Positions 37,720 through 63,682 of a DNA stretch of 64,000 bases are shown piece by piece. Origin of the DNA: a virus (Duplodnaviria; Heunggongvirae; Uroviricota; Caudoviricetes); the IMG/VR virus record IMGVR_UViG_3300008262_003982. One strand, given 5' to 3'. A model generated the notes under the pieces. The model was not told where the DNA came from, ran no database searches, and was given only the letters and a program-made list of their open reading frames with translations. The translations under genes were made by a program, and so were the position numbers. The stretch's first letter is position 1. Every line of letters begins with the position of its first letter.

Positions 37720-38190
37720 ATGTGGATTTTACATTTTCTTCCTGATGCCTTGATCTTATGGTTTTGTAACATCCTGTTATTAGCGGGCCTTGTGCTTACT
37801 GTAGCAGGATTTTTTGCGCATCGTATTCCTCTAGTGTGGCAATATCAGTTGCCCTTTAAAGTCCTGGGCATTGCACTTTTGGTGCTAGGAGTTTACTTTC
37901 GCGGCGGATACGCAGTGGAAGCAGAATGGCGCGAGCGTGTGGCTGAAGTGGAACAAAAACTAAAGATTGCTGAAGCTGAAAGCGCACGGGAAAATGTAAA
38001 GATTGTGGAACGAGTTGTGAAGAAAACTGAATACATCACTCGTAGAGGTCAAGACATCATACAGTATATTGACAGAGAAATAGTCAAGTACGATGTAAAA
38101 TTTGCACCTGGTGGACAGTGTGAAATTCCTCGAGAATTCATTACCACTATAAATCGTGCAGCGGAGGCACCAAAAAATGAAACTAAATGA
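37720..38190 (+). CDS. putative inner-membrane spanin (Rz-like)
   Basis: Two N-terminal TMs, coiled coil (AEWRERVAEVEQKL...) and one C-terminal Cys. Confidence 0.6.
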   Translation: MWILHFLPDALILWFCNILLLAGLVLTVAGFFAHRIPLVWQYQLPFKVLGIALLVLGVYFRGGYAVEAEWRERVAEVEQKLKIAEAESARENVKIVERVVKKTEYITRRGQDIIQYIDREIVKYDVKFAPGGQCEIPREFITTINRAAEAPKNETK

Positions 38191-39568
38191 CGTAATACTA
38201 GAAGCAGCGTCGCCTGCTCAACAGGCAGCCATTGCTATTGCTAAAAAGAAAAAGGCCGGCATGGTCAAAGAACAACAGCTTGATGAATTTGCGCCGTTGT
38301 TGGCAGCAGGTGCAAGACTGTTCATGGCTGCTGCCCCAAAAATAGCACAGGTTCTTGGCCAAGCAGGACAAGCAGGAGCTCGCGGTGCAGGTCAGGCTGC
38401 TCGAGCTGGCACAGAAATTGCAGCCAAGAATGCTGGAAAAATTGGCATGGGTGCTGGTGCTTACGAAATTGGATCTTCTGTGGCAGACATTGCCAAAGAT
38501 ATTGCTGCCAAGGTGGGCACGGCCATTGACGAGAAAACATTGCTTGACCTGTCTGCTTTGGCTTTTAAATATGCCATCCCTGCTGGCATTGTGTTGGCTG
38601 TGTTGTATGGCGGCAAAAAAGCCATAGACTCCTTGTTTGACGAGCCCAAAGATCAGCAAGGTGTGGCGGAAGGCAAAGCTGATTACAACTTTGATATTGA
38701 GGATCTAAAACGTCTTGAACAAATCAGAGACTTGTCCACGTTGAAAGCACAGGCACTGGCATTGATCAGCAAGCCCAGTGCCAAGCCAATGAAACCAGAA
38801 AAAGTTGAATGGTTTAAAAATGCCCTGGAAAGAATGAACAGCCCTTTAAAAGTAATCAAACTCATGTATGATTTGTTGCTGAGTGGCGAAGGTAATGCTG
38901 TAGTTGGTTCTAGATCGTCAATGAATCCCAACAGTTATCGTCAGCGATTTAGTGAGCAAGGTGTAGCGGAAGACTACAATGGCGAGTATGACGACGAAGC
39001 AGGCATGGCCGACAACAACTTAGAAACGCTACAACGTGCTGTAGAAGGTATTGACGATCTAATTCAATCAGGTGATAACTTGCCTGAATGGTGTCAAGAA
39101 AAGATTGCTGTGGCCAAGTCAATGCTGGTTGCTGTGTGGGACTATATGTATTCAGAGGAAGCGTCAGACGAAGTGGATCCCGAAGTGGATGAAATGTTTG
39201 AAGCCATGCAAGAGTTGGTAGCAGAAATGGCTGTGAAAAATCGTGTGAGCGAAGATCTAGTGTGGGAACAGTTTGAAGCCATGCCGGACAATGTGCTGTA
39301 TGAAACAGCCGCCTGGCGACGTAAAGAAGGCAAGAGCAAAAAAGGCGGATTAAACGCCAAAGGTGTGGCATCATATCGTAGAGAAAATCCTGGATCAAAA
39401 TTGCAAATGGCCGTGACCACCAAGCCTTCAAAACTAAAGAAAGGCTCTAAGGCAGCAAAAAGACGCAAATCATTCTGCGCCAGAATGTCAGGCGTTAAAG
39501 GCCCAATGAAAAAACCCAACGGCAAACCCACACGCAAGGCTCTAGCATTGAGAAAATGGAACTGCTGA
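38177..39568 (+). CDS. mosaic late protein, putative head-internal polyprotein, with basic C-terminal module
   Basis: Leader MKLNDVILE|A; two QGVAE linkers; C-terminal AAWRRKEGK..GGLNAKG..SFCARM module recalled from cyanomyophages. Confidence 0.8.
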   Translation: MKLNDVILEAASPAQQAAIAIAKKKKAGMVKEQQLDEFAPLLAAGARLFMAAAPKIAQVLGQAGQAGARGAGQAARAGTEIAAKNAGKIGMGAGAYEIGSSVADIAKDIAAKVGTAIDEKTLLDLSALAFKYAIPAGIVLAVLYGGKKAIDSLFDEPKDQQGVAEGKADYNFDIEDLKRLEQIRDLSTLKAQALALISKPSAKPMKPEKVEWFKNALERMNSPLKVIKLMYDLLLSGEGNAVVGSRSSMNPNSYRQRFSEQGVAEDYNGEYDDEAGMADNNLETLQRAVEGIDDLIQSGDNLPEWCQEKIAVAKSMLVAVWDYMYSEEASDEVDPEVDEMFEAMQELVAEMAVKNRVSEDLVWEQFEAMPDNVLYETAAWRRKEGKSKKGGLNAKGVASYRRENPGSKLQMAVTTKPSKLKKGSKAAKRRKSFCARMSGVKGPMKKPNGKPTRKALALRKWNC

Positions 39569-39569
39569 C

Positions 39570-39878
39570 ATGAAAAATCAACAGGATCAACAACTTGTTT
39601 CCAGTTTGATTATATTTGCAATTGTTGTGATGCTGATGTTGGCCATCACTGGGTGCAGCACTGTGGTGCCTGTTGTGGCCAAGTTTCCAGATGCACCCGG
39701 ACGATCAGCCATGGTGCCGTGCCCACAACTGGAACAGATTCCAGGTGAAGCTCGACTCAGTGACGTTGGTCGAACTGTGGTACAAAACTACACCACTTAC
39801 TATGCTTGTGCTGTGAAAGCAGATGCTTGGATTGAGTGGTACTCAGTACAGAAAAAAATATTTGAAGGTGCAAAATGA
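39570..39878 (+). CDS. putative outer-membrane spanin lipoprotein (Rz1-like)
   Basis: Lipobox ITG|C; Pro-rich FPDAP...PCPQL; adjacent to the endolysin. Confidence 0.65.
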   Translation: MKNQQDQQLVSSLIIFAIVVMLMLAITGCSTVVPVVAKFPDAPGRSAMVPCPQLEQIPGEARLSDVGRTVVQNYTTYYACAVKADAWIEWYSVQKKIFEGAK

Positions 39879-40489
39879 GCATACTATCCGTACAACAACT
39901 AAAACAAATGGTAAAGAATCCCCACATTGATCACTGGCACGAAGCCCTAGATCAACTGTTAGATGACTACGGCATTGACACACCCCTACGTGTGGCACAT
40001 TTTGTTGCACAATGCGCTCATGAGTCAGGAAATTTTATTTTCATCAAAGAAAATCTCAACTACAAAGCCGCAAGCCTACAAAAAGTTTTCCCCAAGTATT
40101 TCCCCACAGCTGAATTGGCTGCACAGTATGCCAACCGGCCTGAACGTATTGCCAACAGAGTCTATGCCAATAGAATGGGCAACGGCGACGAAGCATCAGG
40201 CGATGGCTGGCGCTATTGTGGTCGTGGGCTAATACAGTTGACAGGCAAGGACAACTACACATTCTTTGCAGGCAGCCTGAGTATTTCTGAAGCCGAAGCC
40301 GCAGAATATCTAGCCACTTTTGAAGGTGCCGCACAGTCAGCTTGTTGGTACTGGGAACAGAACAATCTAAATAGATTTGCAGATGCCAATGACGCAAAAG
40401 GTCTAACACGGGCCATCAACGGTGGCTACATTGGTCTTGAGGATCGCATCAAACACACTGAACATGCACTGCATGTGTTGGGAGCCTAA
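39875..40489 (+). CDS. endolysin, glycoside hydrolase family 19
   Basis: AHFVAQCAHESG.F...ENLNY, YCGRGLIQLTGKDNY and INGGYIGLEDR. Confidence 0.92.
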   Translation: MSILSVQQLKQMVKNPHIDHWHEALDQLLDDYGIDTPLRVAHFVAQCAHESGNFIFIKENLNYKAASLQKVFPKYFPTAELAAQYANRPERIANRVYANRMGNGDEASGDGWRYCGRGLIQLTGKDNYTFFAGSLSISEAEAAEYLATFEGAAQSACWYWEQNNLNRFADANDAKGLTRAINGGYIGLEDRIKHTEHALHVLGA

Positions 40490-40651
40490 ATGCCATTAGC
40501 AATTGGTGGGGGCATATCCATTGGTGGGGGCATAAGTGTTGCAGTTGCACCGCCCACACCTTCGGCCACATCCATTACCACAGAGTCGGATGATCCCATC
40601 ACAACAGAATTGGCAAACTCGCCGCCCAGCGACGAGATTATTACAGAATAA
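40490..40651 (+). CDS. small protein with IGxGIxIG leader and acidic tail (missed by ORF track)
   Basis: MPLAIGGGISIGGGISVAVAPPTPSATSITTESDDPITTE... Confidence 0.7.
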   Translation: MPLAIGGGISIGGGISVAVAPPTPSATSITTESDDPITTELANSPPSDEIITE

Positions 40652-40660
40652 GGAAAGCAC

Positions 40661-41407
40661 ATGCCCATTAAAATATCACAACTAACTTCACTAGCCGCAA
40701 TGACTGATGCAGCCATTGTGCCAGTGGTCAGCAGTGGAGTTACCTATCAAATTTCAGGCAGCAACTTGAAAACATATTTTTCTTCTGTGACCGGCAACAT
40801 CACAGGCGGCAACTTGAACACAGGCGGCTTGGTTACAGCCACAGGCAACGTGAACACAGCATCAGGCGTGTTGGCCACTGGCAATGTGCGTGGTGGCAAC
40901 GTAACGTCTGTGGCCCTGGTACAAGGCGCCACAGTGAGTGCCACAGGTAATGTACAAGCTGGCAACCTCAACACCACAGGATTGATTTCTGCTACAGGAA
41001 CCATCACATCTGGCGCTAATATCATTGGTAGTTTCTTTGTGGGCAATGGATCACAGTTGACTGGAATTTCAGGTGGAGTGGCATCACTCAGCGGCAACTT
41101 GTCCGGCAACCTAGTAGGTAATGGATTTGGAGCAGATGCATTTAGTTTTGTCAGCGTTACTGGCAACGTAACAGCCGCAAACTTTATAGGTGGCGGCGCA
41201 GGCACACCCACACTGAGTTCAGCCACAAACTTGGATCTGTCAGCTGTGTCAGCAGTTAGAGTAGTTGGCGGTGGCACGTTCCGACTGCCTAGTTTAACCA
41301 CAGCACAAATTGCCAACACAATTGCAGCCAATGGTGACATGATTTACAACTCATCTACTAACAAGTTTCAGGGTTACGAAAATGGTGCCTGGGCCAATTT
41401 AATTTAA
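40661..41407 (+). CDS. short tail-fibre-like protein with TGNITGGN repeats
   Basis: MPIKISQLT N-terminus; C-terminal GDMIYNSSTNKFQGY. Confidence 0.8.
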   Translation: MPIKISQLTSLAAMTDAAIVPVVSSGVTYQISGSNLKTYFSSVTGNITGGNLNTGGLVTATGNVNTASGVLATGNVRGGNVTSVALVQGATVSATGNVQAGNLNTTGLISATGTITSGANIIGSFFVGNGSQLTGISGGVASLSGNLSGNLVGNGFGADAFSFVSVTGNVTAANFIGGGAGTPTLSSATNLDLSAVSAVRVVGGGTFRLPSLTTAQIANTIAANGDMIYNSSTNKFQGYENGAWANLI

Positions 41408-41408
41408 T

Positions 41409-42956
41409 ATGACCACATATAACGTAGCATTAAATGAAGGTGTTGATTATGATGCTTTCTGGCAGGAAATAGAAACTGACGGATCAGGCAGCGTCTACGT
41501 GCCCCAACGCGGGGTGGCAATTGTGAATGAACGTCCCACCAGTCTACGCCAGTGTTGGTATGAGTTAACTGATGACGAAGCAGACAAACTGCGTCAAGAC
41601 CCCAGAGTGTATTGTGTGGAGATACCGCCTGAGCAACGAACAGATATTGAAATCCACAACAATGCCTCACAAACTGGCTTGTATTACAAAAGTCCCGGCA
41701 CCAATCCTGCCAACAATCTTGGAATCAATTGGGGGTTGTTTAGACTGAATTCAACCACAATGAACACTCCTGGTTCATCAGGTACATTGACCTACAACTA
41801 TCCCTTGGACGGCACTGGAGTAGACTTTGTGGTACAAGACTCAGGACTGCAAGTTGACCATCCTGAGTTTACGGATGCAGCTGGCGTGACTAGAGTACAA
41901 CAAATTGACTGGTACACAGCGTCAGGTATTGCAGGTACCATGCCTGCTAATTTCTACACCGACTATGACGGACATGGCACACACTGTTGTGGCATTGCCG
42001 CGGGCAAAACATACGGTCGTGCTAAAAATGCTAGAATTTACTGTATGACTGTGAGTGGACTCAACGTGGCACCCACCAATGGTATATCAACCACAGATGT
42101 GTTTGACTGCATCAAAGGGTGGCACAACAACAAAACTGTGGACCCCGCCACAGGATACAAACGACCCACAGTTGTAAACATGAGCTGGAGTTACATCAAC
42201 ACGTTCACCAGTATCAATGGTGGCATTTATCGTGGAACGCCCTGGAGTGGGTCTGCCAAACAAGCTACATTTGGTATGATTGGCAGTGCATCCAATCGCT
42301 TTGGTGTAAGAGTAGACAGTGTGGATGTGGATGTGGCCGAATTGCTGGCAGCAGGTGTGGTGTTAGTGGGCGCAGCCGGCAATTACTATCAAACTTTAGA
42401 TGTGCCAGGCGGCCCTGATTACGATAACTTTTTTTATCAAACAAGCACTCCTAGGTATTACATGCGCGGCGGATCACCGGCCAGTGCTGATGGAGTGATC
42501 TGTGTGGGCAACGTCAGCACTGGATATGACAATCCTGAACACAAAAGTGGCTCTAGTGAATCTGGGCCCAGGGTGGATATTTATGCACCTGGCACAAACA
42601 TTGTGAGTACCACCAGTACCAGCAATGCATTTGGTGCTACCACACCATATCCATTCAATGCCAGCTACTTGATAATGAGTATTTCAGGCACGTCAATGGC
42701 CAGTCCCAATGTCGCTGGCCTGGCTGCTCAACTGCTACAAGTTTACCCCACAGCTACCCCAGCACAGATACGAGCCAAGGTCATTGCTATGAGCACTCCC
42801 AACATGCTGTATGACACAGGATCGCAAACTGACTACAGCAATGAAGAAATTCTGCACGGTGGACCCAATAGATTTGCCTATCAGGCATTTAACACAACCA
42901 GCGGCGGCAACATAAGCGGCCCAGTGTCAGTAAGTAACACAAGCATGAGGACATGA
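41409..42956 (+). CDS. subtilisin-like serine protease (S8) with prodomain
   Basis: VDFVVQDSG (Asp), DGHGTHCCG (His), AAGN and SGTSMASPNVAG (Ser). Confidence 0.93.
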   Translation: MTTYNVALNEGVDYDAFWQEIETDGSGSVYVPQRGVAIVNERPTSLRQCWYELTDDEADKLRQDPRVYCVEIPPEQRTDIEIHNNASQTGLYYKSPGTNPANNLGINWGLFRLNSTTMNTPGSSGTLTYNYPLDGTGVDFVVQDSGLQVDHPEFTDAAGVTRVQQIDWYTASGIAGTMPANFYTDYDGHGTHCCGIAAGKTYGRAKNARIYCMTVSGLNVAPTNGISTTDVFDCIKGWHNNKTVDPATGYKRPTVVNMSWSYINTFTSINGGIYRGTPWSGSAKQATFGMIGSASNRFGVRVDSVDVDVAELLAAGVVLVGAAGNYYQTLDVPGGPDYDNFFYQTSTPRYYMRGGSPASADGVICVGNVSTGYDNPEHKSGSSESGPRVDIYAPGTNIVSTTSTSNAFGATTPYPFNASYLIMSISGTSMASPNVAGLAAQLLQVYPTATPAQIRAKVIAMSTPNMLYDTGSQTDYSNEEILHGGPNRFAYQAFNTTSGGNISGPVSVSNTSMRT

Positions 42957-42957
42957 T

Positions 42958-43686: not shown

Positions 43687-43689
43687 TAT

Positions 43690-44909: not shown

Positions 44910-45686
44910 ATGACCGATCACTATGCAACACTAGGTGTTGCTCGAACTGCCACACAAGACGAAATCAAACGAGCTTTCCGTCGGCTGGCCAGCCAGCATC
45001 ATCCGGACAAGGGCGGCGATACAGCCAAGTTCCAAGAGATACAAGCAGCCTACGACACTCTAGGCGACGAAGCCAAACGAGCTGAGTACAACAATCCACG
45101 CCCACAGTTTGGGGGATTCCCCAACGGCACACACTTCAACATGAATGATATTTTTTCAAGCATGTTTGGACAGAACTTTGCGCAACAGCAAGCTCGTAGA
45201 GGTCATGTGAGAATGAGTCTCTGGATCAGTCTTGCTGACGTTGCAACTGGTGGACAGCGCACAGTGACCATTGGTACACAGCAAGGTGCCCAAGCAGTTG
45301 AAATTGAAGTACCGCGTGGCATTGACGACGGAGACAATGTGCAATACCAAGGCCTGGGCCCAGGTGGCGCAGATCTAGTGGTGCAGTATCGAGTGCAACC
45401 AGATCCAAACTGGGAACGGCAAGGACTAAACTTGATTACCAATCGCAAAATCAATGTGTTTGATTTGATATTGGGTGCGGACATTCGAGTTAGAGATTTG
45501 CTAGGCAATGAATTGTCTATGACTGTGCCGTCGGGCACTCAACCGGGCACACTGCTAAGACTCAAAGGTCGTGGTCTGCCCAATCGTCAAGGTCAGCAGG
45601 GCGATGCGTTTGTTCGCATATCAACCGAATTGCCCATACACATTGCCCCAGAAATTCGTGAAGCTATCCAAAAGCATCACAAATAA
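44910..45686 (+). CDS. dnaJ: DnaJ/CbpA-like co-chaperone (no Zn finger)
   Basis: J domain with HPD, G/F region and C-terminal domain (GTQPGT.LRLKGRG). Confidence 0.92.
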   Translation: MTDHYATLGVARTATQDEIKRAFRRLASQHHPDKGGDTAKFQEIQAAYDTLGDEAKRAEYNNPRPQFGGFPNGTHFNMNDIFSSMFGQNFAQQQARRGHVRMSLWISLADVATGGQRTVTIGTQQGAQAVEIEVPRGIDDGDNVQYQGLGPGGADLVVQYRVQPDPNWERQGLNLITNRKINVFDLILGADIRVRDLLGNELSMTVPSGTQPGTLLRLKGRGLPNRQGQQGDAFVRISTELPIHIAPEIREAIQKHHK

Positions 45687-45749: not shown

Positions 45750-48032
45750 ATGCCCATGTCACAACATTCTGAACTCGAAAGTATCGTAGAAGACGCCATT
45801 GAATTGGCTCGTTCCAAAAGTCACGAATACGTGACCACAGAACATTTGCTGTTGGCCCTGATACGGCACCAGCCATTTAGAAAAACTCTGGACAAATTTG
45901 GCACCGACTCTGGCATGCTGGATCAAGAAGTAGACAGCTACCTCAACAGCTTGATTTCTATTGTGAGTAAAAGCGCAGATATACAACCTCGAAAGACCAC
46001 TGCACTGGAACGCATTTTCAATCGTGCCAATGTACAGGTCATGTTTACTGGACGCAGAACACTCACTGTGATTGATGTGTATCTTTCAATCATGGCAGAA
46101 ACCAACAGTCATGCACACTACTTCTTGTTGAAGTATGGTGTGAAGAAACAGGAGTTTGTGGATCATTGGCAAAAGACCTACACTCACTCAGACGCCAAGC
46201 TGAGTCAAGCACAGGCCACAGAAATACTCACTGAGTACTGTACAGATCTCACAGGTGCGGCTCGCGGCAATCGTCTGGAGCCCATGATTGGGCGAGCCAC
46301 AGAAGTTCAAGAAATGGTCACCACACTGGCACGCCGTTTCAAAGCCAACGTGCTGATGGTAGGTGATCCTGGTGTGGGCAAAACACACATTGTGGAAGGA
46401 CTAGCACAGGAAATTGTGGCTGGTCGTGTGCCAGAGTTTCTTAAGGATCACGAAGTGTGGAGCCTGGAAATTGGGTCATTGTTGGCAGGATCAAAGTATC
46501 GCGGTGAGTTTGAAGAAAAATTCAAAGCAGTAATAGCTGCTCTTGAAACCAAGAAGAAATGTATCTTGTTCATTGACGAAGCACACACCATGCGTGGCGC
46601 AGGTTCAGGCTCTAACAGTTCACTTGACTTTGCTAACATGCTGAAACCTGCTATTACCAAAGGCAACTTGAAAGTTGTGGCGTCGACCACCTGGGAAGAA
46701 TACTATGAATCATTTGAGAAAGATCGCGCACTCATGCGCAGATTCTACCGCTTGTCAATTGATGAACCAGATACTGCAACCACGGAGCAGATTCTTATTG
46801 GTCTATCTCCCCGGCTCGAAACGTTTCATAATGTGCTGATTGAAACTGAAGCAATGACTGCGGCTGTGGAACTGGCCAATCGTTACATACACGATCGTAA
46901 GAATCCTGACAAATCAATTGACTTGATTGATGCAGCCTGTGCTAGAGAGCGTGTGAAAGATCTGGGCACAGTAGTAGTTACCAAGGCCATGATTGAAGAA
47001 CAGTTGACTCGTGTGACTGGTGTGCCCACAGACAAACTGCAAAACGAACGTTCAGCTAAGATTGTGGATCTTGAAGGCAACATCAAGCAGAAATTGTACG
47101 GACAAGATTCAGCAGTTGATTCAGTGCTGGAACGTGTGTACATCAACTTTGCTGGCATTGCCAATGACAAAAAGCCCATGGCGAGTTTCTTGTTCTTGGG
47201 CCCAACAGGCACAGGTAAAACAGAACTAGCACGACTGTTGAGTGACAATTTGGATATGAAACTGCTGAAATATGACATGAGTGAATTCCAAGAGCGTCAT
47301 TCAGTCAGCAGCCTTATTGGTGCGCCTCCGGGTTATGTGGGATTTGAAGATGGCAATGTAGGTGGCGGCAAACTGATCTCTGACATCAGCAAGAATCCCT
47401 TCGCAGTAATATTGTTTGATGAGATTGAAAAGGCGCACCCTGATGTTACCAACATCTTGTTGCAGATGCTGGATGAAGGTGTTATTACCAGTTCGAACGG
47501 CAAGAAAGCCAACTGCAAGAATACCATCATTATCATGACTTCAAACTTAGGAGCACGGGACAGTGAAGCAAACAACATTGGCTTTGGCAGCTTTGAAAAG
47601 ACTGGTGAGGACGACCGAGCTCTCAAAGAGTTTTTCAAGCCTGAACTACGCAACAGAATCGACCAAATTGTTAAATTCTCCAAGCTGGATACTTTGGCAA
47701 TCAAGAAAGTTGTGGTCAAGTTTGTGGATGAACTCAAAACGAGTTTGCTTGCAAAAGGTATACGTCTCAACTTATCCGAAGGCGCAGTTGACCTGCTTGC
47801 TGACAAGGGCTATGATTCGAAGCTGGGTGCGCGACCACTCTCGAGGAAGATTGATGAACTGATTCGTGTGCCGTTGAGCAAGAAGATCCTGTTTGATCGC
47901 TTGCGTGATTGTACTATCACTGCGGATGTTGTGGCGGACAAAATTGTGTTTGATGTTCAAGCGGACGCACCTGTGGAAGTGATTGCAAGTGTAAATGTTG
48001 ATGGAATTATAGTGGTGGACAATGAGAAGTGA
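45750..48032 (+). CDS. clpA: ClpA-type AAA+ chaperone/protease subunit
   Basis: Clp N-domain (EHLLLAL), GDPGVGKT, GPTGTGKT and IGF ClpP-docking loop; no ClpB middle domain. Confidence 0.93.
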   Translation: MPMSQHSELESIVEDAIELARSKSHEYVTTEHLLLALIRHQPFRKTLDKFGTDSGMLDQEVDSYLNSLISIVSKSADIQPRKTTALERIFNRANVQVMFTGRRTLTVIDVYLSIMAETNSHAHYFLLKYGVKKQEFVDHWQKTYTHSDAKLSQAQATEILTEYCTDLTGAARGNRLEPMIGRATEVQEMVTTLARRFKANVLMVGDPGVGKTHIVEGLAQEIVAGRVPEFLKDHEVWSLEIGSLLAGSKYRGEFEEKFKAVIAALETKKKCILFIDEAHTMRGAGSGSNSSLDFANMLKPAITKGNLKVVASTTWEEYYESFEKDRALMRRFYRLSIDEPDTATTEQILIGLSPRLETFHNVLIETEAMTAAVELANRYIHDRKNPDKSIDLIDAACARERVKDLGTVVVTKAMIEEQLTRVTGVPTDKLQNERSAKIVDLEGNIKQKLYGQDSAVDSVLERVYINFAGIANDKKPMASFLFLGPTGTGKTELARLLSDNLDMKLLKYDMSEFQERHSVSSLIGAPPGYVGFEDGNVGGGKLISDISKNPFAVILFDEIEKAHPDVTNILLQMLDEGVITSSNGKKANCKNTIIIMTSNLGARDSEANNIGFGSFEKTGEDDRALKEFFKPELRNRIDQIVKFSKLDTLAIKKVVVKFVDELKTSLLAKGIRLNLSEGAVDLLADKGYDSKLGARPLSRKIDELIRVPLSKKILFDRLRDCTITADVVADKIVFDVQADAPVEVIASVNVDGIIVVDNEK

Positions 48033-49703: not shown

Positions 49704-49719
49704 GCACTAAATACAGTGT

Positions 49720-50436
49720 ATGAGCACTGTAGTAATCATGCCCGGGGGATTTCATCCTTTCCATGCAGGGCACCTAGCACTTTATCAATCCGCACAACGG
49801 GCATTCCCTGATGCTGAAGTTTTTGTTGCGGCCACAAACGATACCTCAGCTAGACCATTTCCATTTGCAGTAAAAGAAAAGTTGGCCAAGCTGGCTGGAG
49901 TAGATGCTGGACATTTTGTGCAGGTCAAATCACCGTTTCGTGCTGAAGAAATTACTGCGCAATTTAACCCTGCTACAGACACATTAATTTTTGTGCGTTC
50001 TGATAAAGACGCCAACAAACCTCCACAAGCAGGCGGCATAAAGAAAGATGGCAATCCTGCATACTTGCAACCACTGATAGGTGCAAAGCGATTAGAGCCA
50101 TTTGCAAAACATGCCTACATGGCCTACCTACCCACAGTGGAGTTTGGTCCAGGCATGACGTCGGCCACAGAGATTCGTGGCGCATGGCCCACACTAAACG
50201 AAAAACGCAAAACAGCTCTTGTGATGAGCTTGTATCCAGCAACACAAAAGAATCCCAAATTGGCTGCTAATGTTGTCAAACTGTTGGACACTGCCATTGG
50301 TACTGTGGCTGAGAATCAAGGCTGGGCCGCGACATTTACCAGCGAGAATCAACTGAGTGTGGGTGGCATGAAGGCAGGCTATCAAGCTAGAGAAAATCAG
50401 CCCGTTATTGACTACATGGAAGAGTCTAGGTCGTAA
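49720..50436 (+). CDS. HxGH (cytidylyltransferase-like) nucleotidyltransferase
   Basis: PGGFHPFHAGH...RPFPF..K...SATEIR. Confidence 0.82.
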   Translation: MSTVVIMPGGFHPFHAGHLALYQSAQRAFPDAEVFVAATNDTSARPFPFAVKEKLAKLAGVDAGHFVQVKSPFRAEEITAQFNPATDTLIFVRSDKDANKPPQAGGIKKDGNPAYLQPLIGAKRLEPFAKHAYMAYLPTVEFGPGMTSATEIRGAWPTLNEKRKTALVMSLYPATQKNPKLAANVVKLLDTAIGTVAENQGWAATFTSENQLSVGGMKAGYQARENQPVIDYMEESRS

Positions 50437-55900: not shown

Positions 55901-57732
55901 TTATAGACGACTTATTTGAAGCCTCACAGTCATGCCCACACTGTGGTGGTCCCATGTTCAGTGAAATGCTGATGATGGAAAAGAAAGACGCCTGCTACTA
56001 CAAAGTAAAAGCGTCAGCAAAAGTATGGCCATCAGCCTATGCATCTGGACGCTTGGTTCAGTGTCGCAAAAAAGGCGCTGGCAATTATGGCAACAAGTCT
56101 GAAGGTGTGATGGAAATGGACAAATCACAAACACCTCCAGGGCGTGATGGTAGTAACGATGAAGGCGGCAAAAAAGAATACACTGCTAAAGCAACCACTG
56201 CTAAAAAAGTAGCCAAGGATGCTGAAAAGATTCTAAACAAAGAGTTAAACAAGAAGCAAGGTGTGGCGGAAGCAACTGGCGATCAAAAGTTTGACTCAAT
56301 GATGGGTCAGATCACAGGTGGTGCTACTGCTAGGCAAAGTGTAGATAGTTTGAATAAGTCTCTCACTGCAAGAACAGGCAGCGACCCAGAAACAGCATTG
56401 GCCAAATGGGGCCAGGAATTTATAAATTGGCTTGAAAAAATTTGCCGCAACTTTGAAAGGCAAGGTGTAGATAGGTTTAATAAATTAGAAAAAGTAGGTA
56501 ATCTTGACGACGGTGGCGAAACTATGGCGCACTGGTTGATTGAGGTCGCCAAACAATCCAATACCTCAGGCATTACACAGGCTGACATACAGGAATTTTC
56601 TAGCGAGTTTAATACCCACGGAATGTGGGCTTGGCATCAGTTTCCTATAGCTTGGGGTCTAAAAGAATGGCAAGACTATAAAGATCAATGGACTGGCCCT
56701 GATGGTTACATAGCCAATCTAGGACAAGGCATGGCGGAAGGCTCGGAGTCAGATGCTTACGGTAACACTGGTGAAAAGCATGAATGTGGTTCTTGCGATG
56801 GCACTGGAATAGATACACACGATGATGAGTGCCCAGAATGCGGTGGCAAAGGCTGGGTGAGAAATAAGGAAGCATTGAAGAAGAAAGGCATGGCGGAAGA
56901 GTATGAACTAGCAGGTGTTGGCGTAGCATACGAACTGGGTCGTCGAGCATACAAACAAGGTATGACCATCAGAGACAATCCATATAGTGCCACAAGAGAA
57001 GCCCGTAAAAATGACGAATGGGCCAAAGGATTAGAACGCGGCAAACACGATGCAAATGATGCCAGACATTTCCGCAGTAGTGTAAGAGAACAAGGTGTAG
57101 CGGAAGGTGATCTTGACGAAGGCTGGAAAGAAAAATTAGGTGGCGCGGCATTGGCAGGTGCAATGGCACTGGGCGCAGGTGGTGCCAATGCTAGAGTTAC
57201 TCCTGATGGCCAAGGCGGTTTCACTGGCGGATTCAAGCCAAGTGCAACAATGACATCACCTGCTGATAATAAACCGGCTGCAGAAGCACCAAAAGGCTTT
57301 AGCAAAGAATATTTACAAAGTGTAATAGACGGCAAGCACCCAAGACCAATGGTTAGTGTTGAAAAAGCAAAAGAACTATTAAAGAACATGCAAGAAGGTG
57401 ACTTGAATGAAAAGTCAACCAGCCAAGCACAATTCCGCACCATGGCAGCAGCCGCACACAATCCTGAATTTGCAAAAAAAGTTGGCATCAGCCAAGACGT
57501 TGCTCAAGAGTTCCACGGTGCTGATCGCAAGCAGGACTATGCAGACTTGCCTAAAAAGGCTGACGAAAGCAAATCAACTCCCAAAGAAAAAGAAGCCGAC
57601 TACGGTGATGATTATCAAGACATGATTGCTAGAGTAAAGAAACTGGCTGGCTTGGGCCCACTTAAAACTGTGTATGATCCCCAAAAGCGTGTGTATCGCA
57701 ACATGCCCACAGCGGTGCAACCTAAAAAATGA
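55897..57732 (+). CDS. mosaic late protein with multiple GVAE/GMAE-linked modules
   Basis: MIIDDLFE|A leader; QGVAE x2, QGMAE, KGMAE and EGVME linkers. Confidence 0.8.
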   Translation: MIIDDLFEASQSCPHCGGPMFSEMLMMEKKDACYYKVKASAKVWPSAYASGRLVQCRKKGAGNYGNKSEGVMEMDKSQTPPGRDGSNDEGGKKEYTAKATTAKKVAKDAEKILNKELNKKQGVAEATGDQKFDSMMGQITGGATARQSVDSLNKSLTARTGSDPETALAKWGQEFINWLEKICRNFERQGVDRFNKLEKVGNLDDGGETMAHWLIEVAKQSNTSGITQADIQEFSSEFNTHGMWAWHQFPIAWGLKEWQDYKDQWTGPDGYIANLGQGMAEGSESDAYGNTGEKHECGSCDGTGIDTHDDECPECGGKGWVRNKEALKKKGMAEEYELAGVGVAYELGRRAYKQGMTIRDNPYSATREARKNDEWAKGLERGKHDANDARHFRSSVREQGVAEGDLDEGWKEKLGGAALAGAMALGAGGANARVTPDGQGGFTGGFKPSATMTSPADNKPAAEAPKGFSKEYLQSVIDGKHPRPMVSVEKAKELLKNMQEGDLNEKSTSQAQFRTMAAAAHNPEFAKKVGISQDVAQEFHGADRKQDYADLPKKADESKSTPKEKEADYGDDYQDMIARVKKLAGLGPLKTVYDPQKRVYRNMPTAVQPKK

Positions 57733-58085: not shown

Positions 58086-58118
58086 TTAGGCCACCCCAAA
58101 ACCCAAATACATAACTGC

Positions 58119-58964: not shown

Positions 58965-59473
58965 ACGCATTGTGTATGGTAGCGCATCCAGATGACTGTG
59001 TGATATTTGGTTACAGTTATATTCATGCGCACCCTGAGCACAAATGGACCATTGGCTATTTAACGTACACTGAGCATGATCCCCGAGGCCAAGAACTTTT
59101 GGCGTTTTGGAAACGTCGGGGAATCGACTGTGTGTTTTTGGGCTTTGAAGACCACTGGCATGACAACGAGCAAAAAGTATTCACACGCTGGGCTGAAGAA
59201 TCTGCCGACCGTGCCTGCTGGCACCTTGCTCGTGATTATGATCTAGTGCTCACCCATGACGAACTAGGAGACTATGGACACATACATCATGTGCTGGTAC
59301 ATCGTGCAGTGCAGTGGCATCCTAGACTGGTAACTTTTGCACGGCCTGGTGAAGGAGTTACACATACAATTCCACCTGGCACATACAACTTAGACGAATT
59401 GCCCATGCACAAAGAAATTATTGCTAGTTTTCACAGCGAAGAACACCGAAACAGTTACAAGGAAACACTATGA
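58961..59473 (+). CDS. PIG-L/LmbE-family deacetylase-like protein
   Basis: VAHPDD and LTH...GDYGHIHH. Confidence 0.8.
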   Translation: MNALCMVAHPDDCVIFGYSYIHAHPEHKWTIGYLTYTEHDPRGQELLAFWKRRGIDCVFLGFEDHWHDNEQKVFTRWAEESADRACWHLARDYDLVLTHDELGDYGHIHHVLVHRAVQWHPRLVTFARPGEGVTHTIPPGTYNLDELPMHKEIIASFHSEEHRNSYKETL

Positions 59474-60097
59474 AATTAATGGTAGCAGGCTGCTCGTTTT
59501 CGGCAGTGAGTCAAACTTTGCCAGGCACTGCTTGGAGTGAACGCTTGGCCGAAAAACTAGGTGGCTGGGAGTTGGTTAACCTAGCACGCCAAGGTTGTTC
59601 AAACGGCGGCATCCGTATACAAATAGACGAGATACGCAGACAGCGTCCAGACTTTGCTGTGATTGGTCCTACCTTCTGGGATCGTATGGAAATACCTGCA
59701 AACTCTGTGCCATATGATTGGTCACAGGCACCCAGCGCCGGGGAAAATCCTCCACTAGAACGACACCTACAAAATAGAAAACTGGGCAATGGCTACAACA
59801 GACAAGATGGCATACGCAAGTGTGATTACCATGTTCTTGGATGACATCAAGTTTTTAGTGCTACCCAACTTGCTGTGGCCATTCGATCCTGACAATCATA
59901 CCTTATGGCGTGATGCGTTTCCTAAACTTATCCCTGATCACTACATACAATTGGACACAACTAAAAGTCCTCAAGCCATATGTGGCAGTTACCCATTTTC
60001 AGGAGACGACCCTGGATATCATTCTGGTCCCGAAGGACAGGAAAAAATTGCTGAAAACTTCTATCAGCACATTTCAACCCACTTCGTCATCCCATAA
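59470..60097 (+). pseudogene. SGNH-hydrolase-like gene split into two frames (59470-59844 and 59789/59807-60097)
   Basis: The first ORF has GCSFS and NLARQGCSN (blocks I/II); the terminal DPGYH motif (block V) is in the +1 frame. Confidence 0.6.
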
Positions 60098-61201
60098 CCA
60101 ATGGCCACCTTCAATGTGTTGATGCAGTAGATCAGACATTGTGGCTTGAAACTGAATCTGGTAACTGCGCAATCTAGCTTGGTTGTGATCCAGTATGGCT
60201 TGTATGCGTTCATACAACACTTTGGGATTTTCAAAATATGCCAACTGCAATACCTGATGCATGGCCCGTTCAAATCGTATGCTGTCCACAGGATGTTCAT
60301 CGTAGCTTTCGTCAAGGATACTGCTAAATGTTTCAAACCCTAGTTCGCGCATGCGAGCAAGAAATCCTTGTGCGCCAAAAAACACAAAAATTCTTCTGGC
60401 TAACAAACACTTGGTAACTTTTTCACTCCAGAAAAATGTTGTGCCAGTGCCCAGTGTTTCACACACAATGCTGTAATGACTGCGTTGATAGATGTTCCAG
60501 GGCACATATGGACTGATACTGCGAGTGATGTTGTCCGTGACTTCCCATGCAGGATTTAAGTTTGCACTCACGTAAGGCCACTTTAGCGGAGTGTCATAAA
60601 AAGTCTGCTGAAATTGATCACAGTTTCTGTCAATCAATTTGCCTTCAAAGCAATCTCTGTAGGTCACAATGCTACGATCCAACAGCCCAGTTTTGTCCAT
60701 GGCCATCATCACATAGTCACGGTGCGGTCTACGTGCTCCTAACAGTGCTTCAAACATGTAGGGTTTTTGATCTTGGTAGGTGTCTTGGTATTCGTTGTGT
60801 CGCAAGAGATTGTAAGCCCACCAAGGGCGATACACCATGCAGGATTGATCCAATTCTTCTCCTTGCACAAGACCGCCTACTGCCAACACATAACGTTGAA
60901 TTTTGTTTTTTTCAATCCAGGCACGTATTTCTTTAACACTGTAGTATTCAATGTCACTCAGCAGTACCAAATCAAACTGACTGAGATCCATGTCAGCCAG
61001 TGCTGGATCATAATCAAACACGCCGGGCTCGTTGCACAGCACACGAAATGCTGCTACAGACCACGGTTGACTCAGCGCCAGTGCAGGATCGTTGGTAGTT
61101 TCAAATCTGCCCAGACCCCAATCAGCTGTGACATCAATACTTTGTGATGCAGGTTGATACACAGGATATCGGAACTTTGCTGGGTATGTTATTGTGTACA
61201 T
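60074..61201 (-). CDS. hypothetical protein, glycosyltransferase-like C-terminus
   Basis: LLGARRPHRD...SIVCET...SEKVTKCL..RRIFV.FG..GFL..MRELGFETF. Confidence 0.7.
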   Translation of the reverse strand: MYTITYPAKFRYPVYQPASQSIDVTADWGLGRFETTNDPALALSQPWSVAAFRVLCNEPGVFDYDPALADMDLSQFDLVLLSDIEYYSVKEIRAWIEKNKIQRYVLAVGGLVQGEELDQSCMVYRPWWAYNLLRHNEYQDTYQDQKPYMFEALLGARRPHRDYVMMAMDKTGLLDRSIVTYRDCFEGKLIDRNCDQFQQTFYDTPLKWPYVSANLNPAWEVTDNITRSISPYVPWNIYQRSHYSIVCETLGTGTTFFWSEKVTKCLLARRIFVFFGAQGFLARMRELGFETFSSILDESYDEHPVDSIRFERAMHQVLQLAYFENPKVLYERIQAILDHNQARLRSYQIQFQATMSDLLHQHIEGGHWLWDDEVG

Positions 61202-62058
61202 TGCTTCACCATGTGTTGATAATGTTCAAAATTAGGTATGTCCAATGTGTCCCAATCAAGTTGCATGCTTTGACTTAGGTCCGGCACAGCATCACATACT
61301 GCATTGAACTCTTTGGCATTCAATGTAGACAACAGCTCCAATTGATTGTATTCAAAACGTTTCTGAAAAGTGTAGTTGATGGGATCACAACATGCTGCCC
61401 AGTTTCCTATCAATTCATATTCTGAAAACCATTTGATTATTTCGCCTGTGCCCCAGGGAGGTATTGTGGGCATGCCAGGAACAGCGTCAATAATAGCGTC
61501 CAGCCACAGTTTGTTGGGCCAACGTTGGGCCAGCAGTTTGCGCAATTCAAGCCAGTGTGTGCGCAGTACAGGCACAAGCTCTGACACAAAACAATGCGGG
61601 CTGGCCTCTGGCAATCCAGTAATGCTTTCAAATACCCCATGATAACTGCCGTGCTTGGTGTCAGGTATCACAAGATAATTCAGTTGTTCACCATCCCAGC
61701 ATCTATAAGGTTCAATCATAAAAGTGTCACAGTCATGCATGAGTATGACATCTTCTTCCAACAGGTCTCGGTAGGCCAGTTTGATTGCTTGTTGTCGCAA
61801 CCACCAGCCCCGATAGTCATGGTCAAACACCCAGTTGTTGACTTCAGGATAGCGTTGGTATATCACACTGTCATTCATGTACTTTAGCTGTGAAGTATCA
61901 ATACCATAGCGTTCAAACACTGGCCATAGTTCATGCTGTGGCACTGGCGAAGCTATTATGGTGTAATCTATGCCCAGTAAATTATGGTCCCACTGCATGG
62001 CAAAACATGCATGTGGCACACGATATCTTGCTAGGAACAATACTCTTGCTACAGTCAT
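61189..62058 (-). CDS. glycosyltransferase-like protein (DUF6492-like)
   Basis: GWWLRQQAIKL...MHDCDTFMIEP...SEYELIG. Confidence 0.68.
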   Translation of the reverse strand: MTVARVLFLARYRVPHACFAMQWDHNLLGIDYTIIASPVPQHELWPVFERYGIDTSQLKYMNDSVIYQRYPEVNNWVFDHDYRGWWLRQQAIKLAYRDLLEEDVILMHDCDTFMIEPYRCWDGEQLNYLVIPDTKHGSYHGVFESITGLPEASPHCFVSELVPVLRTHWLELRKLLAQRWPNKLWLDAIIDAVPGMPTIPPWGTGEIIKWFSEYELIGNWAACCDPINYTFQKRFEYNQLELLSTLNAKEFNAVCDAVPDLSQSMQLDWDTLDIPNFEHYQHMVKQCTQ

Positions 62059-62101
62059 AACAAGTTGACAATTTGATTCATGAATTGTTGTAGATCTTTA
62101 T

Positions 62102-63148
62102 TCATGTTCGATTACAAGTTACTACACATTGATAAGTTCTGCCAGCCGCAATGCTAGACTCATTCCAGGTTTGTTCCACACGTTCAAACCATTCAAGACA
62201 GTGTTCAAGAGGATATTCCAATGCATTGTTTTCTGTTACTAATGGAGCCAGTTCTTGATTGCCGGGATGATTCATGGTATGCGGATAAAACCCCAAAAAG
62301 CAGCAGGGATAAACAGAGCCGTCGGCAGCTATGTATATTTCTCGATTGCGTTTGTGATGACACTGCATGTCTAGCACAGGAGTATCTTTGTGATGTGTGA
62401 TTGTTTTGGCATCGTACCAAGTGATATGACTTTCCAAAAAAGGATGCACTGTTTGATTGGTAAGACCGCCAGGGTCTGGACCAATCTTGTGACTGAATGT
62501 GCCGTCTCGATTGTATACCGACGTGCGATCTCTTCCATCATAGATATTTTCAAACTTTGCAAAGCCCATTTGGGCAGCCATATCTCTGCAGGCCTGTTCC
62601 TGATGACGGTTATGATCAAACGGCACAAACCTCCATACAGCTTGTCCACCAGCGTTGATCAGTGCTTGAGCATGTGAAATTATTCTATGCCAGTCTGTGT
62701 CTTGGCGATACAAATGATGCGTGTCTGCTAGGCCATCAATGGCAAAACCCACTGTAACTTTGGGTAGAGCCAGTCTTGCCCACCATTCTGGACTGCGCAC
62801 AGAACCATTGGTATTGATAATAACAGGTACCTGATGCTCTACCAGGTATTCTACTATTTCAACAGCATCACGTGCAGAAGCAAAATCACCCAGATTTCCA
62901 TTGAATGCCACACCTCTAAATTCATATATGATTGGCACACGATCTCCAATGGGCGGATCGGGCTGAATTAGTTGTGCTAAAACGTTAGGAGTTAGAATTT
63001 TCTTGAAATCTCCAACACTGAGTTCACACAGCGGATATCCACTATTGTAATCATACCCTCGATAGTTTCTCATGCACATGGGGCATCTGGCATTGCATCT
63101 AGTGGTCAATTCCACATGCACTTTGCGTATATCATTCAATTTTAGCAT
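62102..63148 (-). CDS. radical SAM protein with C-terminal SPASM/twitch
   Basis: ELTTRCNARCPMC; NGNLGD; YIAADGSVYPCCF. Confidence 0.9.
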   Translation of the reverse strand: MLKLNDIRKVHVELTTRCNARCPMCMRNYRGYDYNSGYPLCELSVGDFKKILTPNVLAQLIQPDPPIGDRVPIIYEFRGVAFNGNLGDFASARDAVEIVEYLVEHQVPVIINTNGSVRSPEWWARLALPKVTVGFAIDGLADTHHLYRQDTDWHRIISHAQALINAGGQAVWRFVPFDHNRHQEQACRDMAAQMGFAKFENIYDGRDRTSVYNRDGTFSHKIGPDPGGLTNQTVHPFLESHITWYDAKTITHHKDTPVLDMQCHHKRNREIYIAADGSVYPCCFLGFYPHTMNHPGNQELAPLVTENNALEYPLEHCLEWFERVEQTWNESSIAAGRTYQCVVTCNRT

Positions 63149-63152
63149 GCAA

Positions 63153-63180
63153 TATTTATAGACCCACTTAATGATAAATA
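63153..63180. promoter_or_regulatory. divergent late promoters, including a perfect T4 TATAAATA on the minus strand
   Basis: TATTTATA 63153-63160 (minus strand) and TAAATA 63175-63180 (plus strand); ATGs 4-5 nt away. Confidence 0.75.
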
Positions 63181-63185
63181 TCTTT

Positions 63186-63470
63186 ATGAACAAAAAGTTT
63201 GTCAAGGTAATTTGCGAAGTTTATTGCCAAGGTTGGACTGACCCTCCAACCTACCGAGCTTATGTCAATAATGAATTGTTTACCGAACGCACCTGGGTTT
63301 GGCGTGATCAGCATTTGGAAGAGTCTTTTCAAATTGCCGCAGAACCAGGTAAGTACAAGTTGCGCTATGAATTATTGCCTGGAACATTAGCGTCAATACA
63401 GCAGCTGAATTGGCGTGTGGTTGATGGCCCGGGCATGATAGACAGCGGCGGCGAGTTGGAAATACTATAA
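63186..63470 (+). CDS. hypothetical protein
   Basis: ORF after the late promoter. Confidence 0.7.
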   Translation: MNKKFVKVICEVYCQGWTDPPTYRAYVNNELFTERTWVWRDQHLEESFQIAAEPGKYKLRYELLPGTLASIQQLNWRVVDGPGMIDSGGELEIL

Positions 63471-63682
63471 TGAAAATTCAAGAAATCATGGAAAATGCGT
63501 CAGTGGGCGGCACCAGTGCTGGTAGTATAGCACCTGTGAGCCAGGCCTTAGGCATGGTGTCAAGATCAGGCGGATCCTTGTTGAGTGGTAAATATACAAC
63601 TGATCCTACGCCTAACACGCCCAAGGAATACAAAAGGAATAAGAATGTTAGCGGACGCTTTAAAAACACTCCTGGCAACTGA
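63470..63682 (+). CDS. small late protein with MKIQEIME leader
   Basis: MKIQEIME|NASVGGTSAGSIA. Confidence 0.7.
   Translation: MKIQEIMENASVGGTSAGSIAPVSQALGMVSRSGGSLLSGKYTTDPTPNTPKEYKRNKNVSGRFKNTPGN

Follow-up and report, generated by a model that had tools for sequence, protein, structure and literature searches.

A group of genes in a 64,000-nucleotide (nt) stretch of viral DNA (Caudoviricetes; IMG/VR record IMGVR_UViG_3300008262_003982; hereafter the window) raises the question of why unrelated protein modules should be chained in single open reading frames (ORFs) and separated, over and over, by short sites that end in glutamate. The window is part of a huge genome of an uncultured freshwater (lake) phage, giant and related to T4. 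An initial annotation had answered that these are cargo polyproteins, loaded into the head, cut during its maturation and injected with the DNA. The architecture behind that answer is strongly supported by comparison (unrelated modules, [LVM]-x-E sites, T4-like leaders); the parallel with phiKZ gp175 on which it also leaned is not. We favour a similar reading, to which we give a probability of roughly 0.55-0.6: the mosaic proteins of the window (P0001 to P0006, Table 1) would be late-expressed capsid-cargo precursors that the head protease cuts inside the prohead and whose products are delivered into the host.

All ORFs named in the initial annotation are present at their coordinates and with the translations it had quoted. 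Pfam and PHROG matches span just pieces of each protein and the pieces belong to different families, so that proteins of the P0001-P0005 type are mosaics; the claim that their modules are mutually unrelated was borne out by Pfam, PHROG and sequence comparison. In P0001, the leader is followed by a small basic peptide ending in QLDE↓F (the arrow marks a predicted cut), an Ala/Gly-rich hydrophobic module, QGVAE↓G, a helical module, QGVAE↓D, an acidic module, VLYE↓T and a basic DUF6321 module (Pfam E 1e-21, residues 385-461) that starts directly after VLYE↓T. The acidic module (net charge -26, 111 amino acids) abuts the basic one (+26, 87 amino acids) across VLYE↓T (window 38972-39565) and has the look of a pro-piece that neutralises the charge of a DNA-binding peptide. 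P0002 carries a Pol-beta-type (NTP_transf_2-like) nucleotidyltransferase, an HExxH zincin (Peptidase_M78 E 0.0045, 17.2 bits, below the cut-off of 22) and Amidoligase_2 (E 3.3e-8), and, after MTE-GVAE↓G, two added C-terminal modules of which the last (NVGE↓N...) is basic, with a net charge of +13. P0003 is composed of its leader, a CW.GY Cys module, ELEE↓N and a basic Cys module (net +17), and its PHROG matches form two blocks that meet at residues 40/41, which is the ELEE↓N site. P0005 runs from its leader through an acidic module and QLRE↓L to a Cys-containing basic module.

P0004 is the longest chain of small modules: leader, a Zn-ribbon and KKDACYYKVK module, GVME↓M, a basic MDKSQTPPGRDG module, QGVAE↓A, a 156-residue helical module, QGMAE↓G, a CxxC Zn-finger module (matching a DnaJ-type finger), KGMAE↓E, an RMF-like module, QGVAE↓G, DLDE↓G, a signal-peptide-like GWKEKLGGAALAGAMALGAGGANA module, DLNE↓K, and a DUF3008-like plus C-terminal module. 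Its AlphaFold2 model contains confident separate helical modules with a predicted template-modelling score of 0.29, and the predicted local distance difference test falls below 50 at residues 119-127, 277-311, 316-341, 399-409 and 502-506, so the protein is modelled as beads on a string, with Glu-ending sites within the string. Foldseek comparison of the model with the PDB returned nothing with E < 1.9. Residues 507-559 form a module homologous to the N-terminus of 121Q gp51, annotated as virion structural, and of 201phi2-1 gp383, and also occur in EL. The RMF-like module (56899-57105, from KGMAE↓E to QGVAE↓G) owes its name to Pfam matches alone, both sub-threshold (E 0.005, and 0.00088 in a relative); a phmmer search of PDB sequences with it gave no match.

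The predicted products of cutting at these sites comprise three strongly basic peptides, namely DUF6321 and the C-terminal parts of P0003 and P0002, next to the acidic piece, two Cys4 modules, the Ala/Gly-rich hydrophobic piece, the RMF-like piece and several helical modules. Their predicted post-Glu N-termini include GKADYNFDIEDLK, ATGDQKFDSMMGQITGGATAR, EYELAGVGVAYELGR and NASVGGTSAGSIAPV. Some would begin with Phe or Leu (FAPLL..., LSFLG...), residues that act in bacteria as N-degrons for ClpS/ClpAP. Polyproteins of the homologues add Sigma70_r4 (E 3.8e-15), the SutA RNA polymerase-binding domain and RyR by Pfam, and GNAT by source annotation. No PHROG or Pfam match ties the mature modules of the window proteins to the T4 internal proteins.

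The recurrence of the internal sites was analyzed in the 76 called genes of the window and in homologues of P0004. The motif G[VM]AE is present seven times in the window, where 0.72 copies are expected from composition, with two in P0001, one in P0002, four in P0004 and none elsewhere. Of the 8,000 candidates scored in a search with P0004 against 5.8 billion proteins, 2,559 proved related at E <= 1e-5, a lower bound for the family; motifs were counted in the 119 non-self sequences among the 120 matches listed (70,184 residues), and 68 sequences were scanned with Pfam. All 119 contained G[VM]AE, at 362 sites or about one per 194 residues, with the consensus Q-G-V-A-E-[G/E/A]. When these homologues were aligned all against all by BLAST, 34.6% of the internal alignment ends fell at most 6 residues from a G[VM]AE, compared with 8.6% expected, and the peak stood exactly on the Glu; for G[VM]AE, the enrichment at module boundaries on which the initial annotation had staked its reading was found. 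Across 32 IMG/VR loci, matched parts of P0004 begin or end at residues 119/120, 283/284, 329, 404 and 495-503, which are the sites themselves.

Following nine module families one by one revealed what these sites have in common. Of 263 instances, 262 have Glu immediately ahead of the module, invariably with Leu, Val or Met at P3 and with a free P2; DLNE↓K ends in Glu in 50/50 cases, DLDE↓G in 20/20 and L[NDK]E↓FAPG in 6/7. One single module is preceded by the hexamers KKGVAE, RKSLEE, RKSLGE and RSSVRE, another by AESVNE, SEGVME, AEGLSE and RANLPE, and further upstream hexamers are EDQLDE, EGDLNE, TDQVNE, EGELDE, VTDLTE, DNVLYE and EGSLNE. Since Glu and Leu/Val/Met are kept across such different hexamers, conservation sits at P3 and P1, and the site rule appears to be [L/V/M]-x-E, broader than GVAE. 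The wide list of sites in the initial annotation (QLDE↓F, DLDE↓G, DLNE↓K, VLYE↓T, ELEE↓N, QLRE↓L, NVGE↓N) fits this rule, and each of its nine internal site types lies at a module boundary defined independently, by a PHROG split, a Pfam start, the Glu-preceded families or comparison with the related contig G001. Processing of the capsid-targeting sequence (CTS) of T4 hinges on its residues 8 and 10, which correspond to P3 and P1 (PMC9026906), and the head proteases of T4, phiKZ and SPN3US all cut after Glu (PMC5694885). Judged from sequence, the rule would match that of T4 gp21, and we consider it likely that the junction is a proteolytic site.

The main junction is fixed as DNA as well as peptide. 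Among 75 non-redundant instances, its Ala codon is GCG in 80% (background 7%), its Val codon GTG in 79% (25%) and its Gly codon GGT in 81% (43%), and within the window GCG is used at six of the seven sites although it makes up 6.5% of Ala codons overall (P about 5e-7). The junction is therefore an 18-nt connector kept at silent positions (CAAGGTGTGGCGGAAGGC). G001, a 342,865-bp IMG/VR contig rated 99% complete, shares synteny with the window (69-78% nucleotide identity in most of the segments that match), and the five mosaic proteins P0001-P0005 all differ from it at or near predicted sites. P0001 is 93% identical from QGVAE (residue 161) onward and has a different N-terminal half; G001 fuses the first 73 residues of P0004 (89% identical, up to GVME) to the same P0001 tail via GVAE. 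P0002 is collinear to ...VVPIMTE (residue 1216), 9 residues after which the G001 orthologue ends, whereas the window copy runs on through GVAE. P0003 lacks a 64-residue insertion that G001 has at the Glu boundary, and P0005 shares just residues 66-118, near or after QLRE↓L, with a different G001 protein. These rebuilds indicate that the connector is the place of module exchange, that is, a recombination connector as well, a property that the initial annotation had missed together with the fixation at silent positions. That these proteins are mosaics, shuffled at a conserved junction, we regard as almost certain.

The N-termini follow a related rule. The leaders quoted earlier are all present: MKLNDVILE↓A in P0001, MRYKEILE↓A in P0003, MIIDDLFE↓A in P0004, MRAYEFAQLKE↓G in P0005, MKIQEIME↓N in P0006 and MMHNNNSHNPLLE↓G (PLLE↓G) in P0007. 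The first five of these proteins fit a leader of about 10 residues that ends in [L/I]-x-E and is followed by a small residue. P0007, which matches a PHROG annotated as virion structural protein, is with the superoxide dismutase (SOD) the weakest member of the set; the likeness of its PLLE↓G to ALLE↓G of the capsid protein, as to head-protein N-termini, was not significant. The SOD has a genuine N-terminal extension of about 18-22 residues ahead of Sod_Fe_N, with its predicted cut before AS; the extension is conserved in G001, where it begins MQIREHIDLVE↓AS. A loose pattern (M, 2-11 residues, hydrophobic-x-E-[AGSNE]) was found in 12 of the window's genes compared with 3.5 expected, and a stricter one in 3 compared with 0.3. 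In relatives, the same short leaders head different modules: MIIHDLYES, MNLNDLFNEE, MKFKDLVES, MNIKELFEG, MYITELFEA (on an NMNAT-like enzyme) and the MRA.EF...E class. T4 records give MAKINELLRE↓S for gp24 and MLKEQLIAE↓A for gp22, both annotated as cut or degraded by gp21, and the window leaders seem to resemble these head-protein N-termini and the T4 CTS. Three leader classes can be told apart, M-x-[IL]-x-[DE]-h-h-E↓[AS], MRA-x-EF...E↓ (the class of P0005), and one that copies the maturation junction of the capsid protein itself. Outside this clade, 121Q gp50 (L006 2451-4022, annotated virion structural) begins MKYNQLQES and has a zincin motif, HEAQH, comparable to HELAH in P0002; the adjacent gp49 begins MSYEELYKAIMEA, and similar leaders may exist in Rak2-like jumbo coliphages.

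The third leader class links the cargo to the capsid itself. P0006 consists of its leader, a copy of the predicted maturation junction and N-arm of the capsid protein, and a basic tail. The alignment of this copy to a related gp23-type capsid protein (gene at L077 271-1467, minus strand) scores 52, whereas shuffled sequences score 28.4 +/- 4.2 and reach that value in 1 of 2000 cases; in a comparison of the 76 window genes with five head proteins the pair ranks top by a wide margin (z 6.5). The shared pattern is E↓NAS.G.T.AG..A, and the capsid residues concerned (39-66) are the likely propeptide junction by alignment with T4 gp23, which is cut at LTE65↓A. In G003, a more distant relative than G001 that carries GVAE polyproteins, the N-terminus of a polyprotein (NETRYTLES↓MTAGATGSGSVAT) likewise matches the junction of the phage's own capsid protein (NTRRYLGES↓ATAGATSTGNIAT; z about 7), and longer versions of this start (MNNEFKK...TRYTLES↓MTAGATGSGSVATA) open polyproteins of G003 and of further contigs. 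From these two matches, some cargo proteins would begin with a copy of the head protease's principal substrate site.

The protease itself is encoded in relatives of the window phage. G003 has Peptidase_S77 (PF03420, E 8.6e-26) and gp23 (E 1.2e-96) alongside its GVAE polyproteins, and its synteny puts the head module just beyond the first gene of G001, i.e. at the contig ends (L049 1-2534; L066). Accordingly, G001 is without portal, protease, scaffold and capsid genes because its assembly breaks inside the head module. Two contigs whose flanking gene is 90% and 96% identical to that of G001 (L077, L078) carry head genes directly beside it, with 46-74% identity to the G003 copies: the first has portal, acidic core protein, gp21 protease, gp22 scaffold and gp23 capsid genes, and the second, which is shorter, reaches the protease. 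The protease of the clade keeps the catalytic His and Ser motifs of T4 gp21. The presence of the head module in G003 and in close relatives of G001 shows that the lineage is T4-like with an S77 protease, and by bracketing the window phage's own genome would encode an S77 protease and a gp23 capsid as well. The gp21-like protease whose identification the initial annotation had proposed was thus found in G003 and in G001-like contigs, and not in the window. As the rating of G001 illustrates, completeness estimates can hide a missing head module.

Evidence on packaging comes from T4-like cyanophages, in which module homologues are common between g16 and g17 and equally mosaic. S-SM1 SSM1_115 (T4-GC119, 495 amino acids) has four module families in common with P0001, P0003 and P0004: the basic P0003 module, CW.GY, the P0004 KKDACY..WPSAYASG module (72% identity) and DUF6321 (53%). 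T4-GC119 was detected in purified S-SM1 virions by mass spectrometry with 13 peptides (Sullivan et al. 2010, Table S8, PMC3037559), and its gene ranges from 276 to 2,985 nt across 15 cyanophages (PMC3037559). As to expression, TAAATA occurs 28 times in the window on both strands, and 12 copies lie within 45 nt upstream of gene starts, about 16 times the 0.75 expected. It stands 11-30 nt upstream of P0002, P0003, the start of the P0002-P0005 operon and both tail-fibre genes. This position before tail-fibre genes and polyprotein operons suggests a late-promoter element, and TAAATA is probably the clade's shortened form of the T4-type late promoter. The canonical T4 late promoter TATAAATA is present in one copy in the window compared with 1.2 expected, and CTAAATA is not enriched in number; the signal lies solely in where TAAATA stands with respect to gene starts. 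The polyprotein genes lie outside the head module.

Several modules behind junctions resemble export signals. Nine of the 11 twin-arginine translocation (Tat)-like motifs in the homologues lie within about 10 residues after G[VM]AE, as in ...GVAE↓GSLEEIDRRGFLKGLGAAAMAGAAGSAMAQ, and are followed by several different passenger modules; they are made up of DRRGFL[KR]G, an Ala/Gly h-region and AxA, and Pfam TAT_signal was found in 5 of the 68 homologues scanned. G001 has two such modules inside polyproteins (162359-163918 and 179650-181551, minus strand; loci L057/L058), and others are found in the homologues P0048, P0058 and P0104. In P0004, GVAE-GDLDE↓ is directly followed by GWKEKLGGAALAGAMALGAGGANA↓R, in which the n-, h- and c-regions of a general secretory (Sec) signal can be made out by inspection. 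Internal export signals are hard to explain in a chain that stays uncut and so favour cutting. One of the G001 Tat modules is fused behind an NMNAT-like enzyme, whose orthologue in the window (49738-50436) is without the extension.

Taken together, these observations suggest the following course of events. Like the 10-residue CTS in T4, a short N-terminal leader would bring the precursor into the prohead's scaffolding core. A gp21-type serine protease (MEROPS S77) would cut after Glu at every [L/V/I/M]-x-E, most often at Q-G-V-A-E↓G, and so remove the leader and separate the modules. The products would include very basic peptides, which would probably neutralise packaged DNA as lysine-rich internal proteins do in T4, small Zn-binding and helical modules and, in relatives, host-takeover pieces (sigma-70 region 4, SutA, RMF-like, GNAT) and Tat/Sec-like modules, and they would exit the head together with the DNA. 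The lysine-rich internal proteins of T4 contact DNA phosphates and number about 1,000 copies per head (PMC3012670); we infer that the basic modules fit such a role and the other modules one in early takeover. Comparison shows that related phages gain, lose and swap modules in frame at the 18-nt connector, and the cargo set would be easily re-assorted. A bolder version of this scheme, which we offer as speculation, is a plug-and-play cargo: one 18-nt connector would serve both as in-frame recombination site and as head-protease cut site, a T4-like phage would load re-assorted small proteins through it, and the pieces would be sorted after injection, the basic ones with the DNA, the sigma/SutA/RMF-like ones to RNA polymerase and ribosomes, and the Tat/Sec ones to the periplasm via host translocases.

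Several results weigh against processing inside the prohead, which for this phage we infer. Neither the gp21-type protease nor the gp23 capsid gene lies within the window, and Peptidase_S77 (PF03420) and Gp23 (PF07068) have no match in G001; the conclusion that the lineage is not T4-like, which the latter absence might invite, was rejected since close relatives carry the head module at that very spot. P0002 is without a cleavable leader, as had been noted before: its start, MNINELDSF, is leader-like with no Glu at the cut position, and its internal sites are present. The loose leader pattern occurs in 18 of the 395 G001 genes counted, with 17-18 expected, so there is no genome-wide enrichment and this pattern alone does not discriminate; genome-wide motif enrichment, a check proposed by the initial annotation, therefore came out positive for G[VM]AE in the window and at expectation for the leaders in G001. 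Hydrophobic-x-E at homology breakpoints other than GVAE is only weakly raised (12%, compared with 8.4%), and the analysis per module family replaced this test as the main basis of the site rule. The fixation of silent positions means that part of the conservation of the junction is not about the peptide. The detection in S-SM1 speaks for presence in the virion and says nothing on cleavage, and SSM1_115 uses linkers other than QGVAE. Finally, Tat- and Sec-type signals are unexpected in capsid cargo and fit processing in the cytoplasm at least as well.

Two other explanations take up these points. In one, which we hold to be improbable, the junction is a recombination connector and flexible hinge, its Glu-containing peptide is incidental to the 18-nt connector, and the proteins work as intact polyvalent effectors, whether in the virion or the infected cell. 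Silent-site conservation with a rare Ala codon, module swaps exactly at the connector between the window and G001, and the low-confidence, linker-like structure that AlphaFold2 gives the sites would suit such a hinge, and the polyvalent virion RNA polymerase of N4 is packaged unprocessed (PMC5512222); yet Glu and a hydrophobic P3 are also found where the DNA connector is absent (SLEE, SVNE, QLDE, DLDE, VLYE), the leaders obey the same P3/P1 rule, P0006 and the G003 polyprotein copy a capsid maturation junction, and canonical Tat signals behind junctions make little sense if never released. In the other explanation, which is unlikely, the chains are cut in the cytoplasm of the infected cell, where the modules act or are exported, by the M78-like zincin of P0002, the subtilisin-like protease (41409-42956) or an enzyme of the host in concert with the ClpA/DnaJ-like proteins of the phage. 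It draws its weight mainly from the export signals, which suit proteins released in the producing cell and call into question where the cut happens; that the polyprotein genes are not in the head module, that the two polyprotein operons flank genes of subtilisin-like, ClpA-like and J-domain type, and that zincins of polyvalent proteins are predicted autoproteases (PMC5512222) also speak for it. However, the zincin was not supported as the junction protease, since HEL[AT]H is found in none of the 119 listed homologues and the part of G003 examined has GVAE polyproteins and no zincin homologue. In cyanophages and G003, the homologues of the subtilisin are surrounded by baseplate and tail genes, and the site rule agrees with the Glu-specific head protease family. 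The mimicry of the capsid junction and the homologous mosaic protein in S-SM1 virions are further at odds with cutting in the cytoplasm. On indirect evidence, namely the protease in relatives, the mimicry of the capsid junction, Tat signals after junctions and the virion homologue of S-SM1, we favour proteolytic release by the head protease.

Table 1. Coordinates of the mosaic proteins, their junctions and associated features (positions in the window unless a locus is named).
Feature	Coordinates	Strand	Remarks
P0001	38177..39568	+	463-aa mosaic protein
P0002	51371..55540	+	1389-aa polyvalent protein
P0003	55547..55900	+	117 aa
P0004	55897..57732	+	611 aa, about nine modules
P0005	57729..58085	+	118 aa
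P0006	63470..63682	+	70 aa
P0007	35172..35729	+	185 aa; phrog_13138 match, E 1.2e-14
Fe/Mn superoxide dismutase (SOD)	11794..12342	+	N-terminal extension before Sod_Fe_N domain
P0006 residues 5-32 (IME↓NASVGGTSAGSIAPVSQALGMVSR)	63482..63565	+	aligns to residues 39-66 of related gp23-type capsid protein (LKE↓NASAGSTVAGNVATLNRVILPVIR)
GVAE junction 1 of P0001	38660..38671	+	DNA with flanking codons CAAGGTGTGGCGGAAGGC
GVAE junction 2 of P0001	38960..38971	+	
GVAE junction of P0002	55019..55030	+	where the window copy gained modules relative to G001
Degenerate junction GVME of P0004	56104..56115	+	relatives show NKSE-GVAE-G; module swap point versus G001
GVAE junction of P0004, residues 122-125	56260..56271	+	
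GMAE junction of P0004, residues 278-281	56728..56739	+	
GMAE junction of P0004, residues 331-334	56887..56898	+	
GVAE junction of P0004, residues 400-403	57094..57105	+	
TAAATA before P0002	51357..51362	+	14 nt upstream
TAAATA before P0003	55534-55539		
TAAATA/CTAAATA before operon start	49707-49713		
CTAAATA before P0001 operon	37708-37714		
Further TAAATA site	17391-17397	-	
Further TAAATA site	33630-33636		
Marine cyanomyovirus homologues with linker [FY]S.WRD[DE]h[DE]h.E↓G	L001 4276-6399; L002 4593-5408, 5853-7844; L098 2037-3524		

Besides the polyprotein genes, the window contains tail-fibre genes, a clamp loader, radical-SAM enzymes, an endolysin, and the subtilisin-like protein and ClpA-like ATPase. 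Between the two polyprotein operons, the subtilisin-like gene is accompanied by genes for a J-domain protein (44910-45686) and the ClpA-like AAA+ ATPase (45756-48032; 39% identity to its counterparts in PA5oct and Atu_ph07). No tRNA genes were found within the window, and a nucleotide search of phage genomes with the polyprotein region as query gave no match.

The family is large (at least 2,559 proteins at E <= 1e-5) and abundant in freshwater metagenomes, and some of its modules recur in marine cyanophages, jumbo coliphages and pseudomonad phages. P0004 itself is found with identical sequence in 40 assembly blocks. If release by the head protease is right, a few genes would supply dozens of capsid-borne proteins, and the cut sequence would at the same time be the module-exchange sequence, a simple route to fast turnover of injected counter-defence and takeover factors; in the bolder, speculative version of the scheme, the pieces with Tat/Sec signals would be periplasmic effectors delivered by the virion, the first of their kind. 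Internal Tat signals, a capsid-junction leader and paired -26/+26 modules each yield a specific hypothesis that current models of T4 head assembly would not lead one to expect. The scheme lends itself to direct testing: the predicted cut sites give exact peptide masses, and a homologue has already been detected in the virions of a cultured cyanophage. Connector plus leader could serve to load designed cargo into T4-like heads. To our knowledge, a polyprotein strategy with a standard repeated cut site is not known in tailed double-stranded DNA phages.

Among described systems, the nearest are the T4 internal proteins IPI, IPII and IPIII and Alt, with their CTS and gp21 (MEROPS S77). They are alike in the short leader ending in hydrophobic-x-Glu, in highly variable and often basic mature parts with nothing but the leader in common, in the protease family present in the lineage and in cutting after Glu with P3 and P1 determinants, which is predicted here. 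That the CTS may let T4-like phages load varied or arbitrary proteins into the head has already been stated (PMC9026906; PMC3012670), and T4 relatives have other basic proteins with CTS-like leaders (PMC9026906). In contrast, T4 cargo genes encode single modules with one or two cuts, whereas a single ORF holds as many as nine modules in the window, and over 10 in relatives, around a repeated standard junction that is fixed as DNA and serves as swap point, together with leaders copying the capsid junction and Tat/Sec-like modules. The polyvalent proteins of phages and conjugative elements (Iyer, Burroughs, Anand, de Souza and Aravind 2017, PMC5512222) also combine many unrelated effector domains in one polypeptide, are encoded by late genes and are predicted to travel with the DNA and be released by proteolysis; P0002, with at least two unrelated enzymatic domains in a late/virion context, fits this description. 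That work describes no repeated linker or cut-site motif, CTS-like leader or DNA-level connector, and most modules here are peptides of 30-150 residues, not enzymes; its hallmarks (MuF, ART, MPTase, DarB-like helicase/methylase, ParB-like) were absent from our Pfam and PHROG scans, which gave the sub-threshold M78-like zincin only.

In phiKZ-like giant phages, with their inner-body and ejection proteins, a diverged homologue of gp21 (phiKZ gp175, SPN3US gp245; MEROPS S80) likewise cleaves a large number of head proteins behind Glu, some of them more than once, but these proteins lose propeptides and do not string together unrelated, swappable modules. The cleavage motif there is S/A/G-x-E or A-x-E (PMC5694885); P3 is Val, Leu, Met or Ile at the junctions and leaders described here, so that the parallel drawn by the initial annotation does not fit. 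The cyanomyovirus proteins of T4-GC119 (S-SM1 SSM1_115, P-SSM2 PSSM2_123) share DUF6321, KKDACY..WPSAYASG, CW.GY and the ..DWF..PKC.. basic module with the window proteins. They have other linkers ([FY]SxWRD[DE]..E↓G, IQE↓G, FQE↓K; AVLE↓ is a further predicted site in SSM1_115) and no obvious short leader and have never been described as processed; as their linker differs and its Glu end is kept, the junction peptide varies between clades. In the searchable literature we found no description of modules chained by one repeated cut-site-like junction, of its silent-site fixation or role in shuffling, of leaders that mimic a capsid junction, or of internal Tat signals. All in all, as far as sequences can tell, the proteins appear to belong to a known kind, the capsid-targeted cargo of T4, while the chaining of modules, the DNA-fixed junction, the mimic leaders and the internal Tat signals appear to be new.

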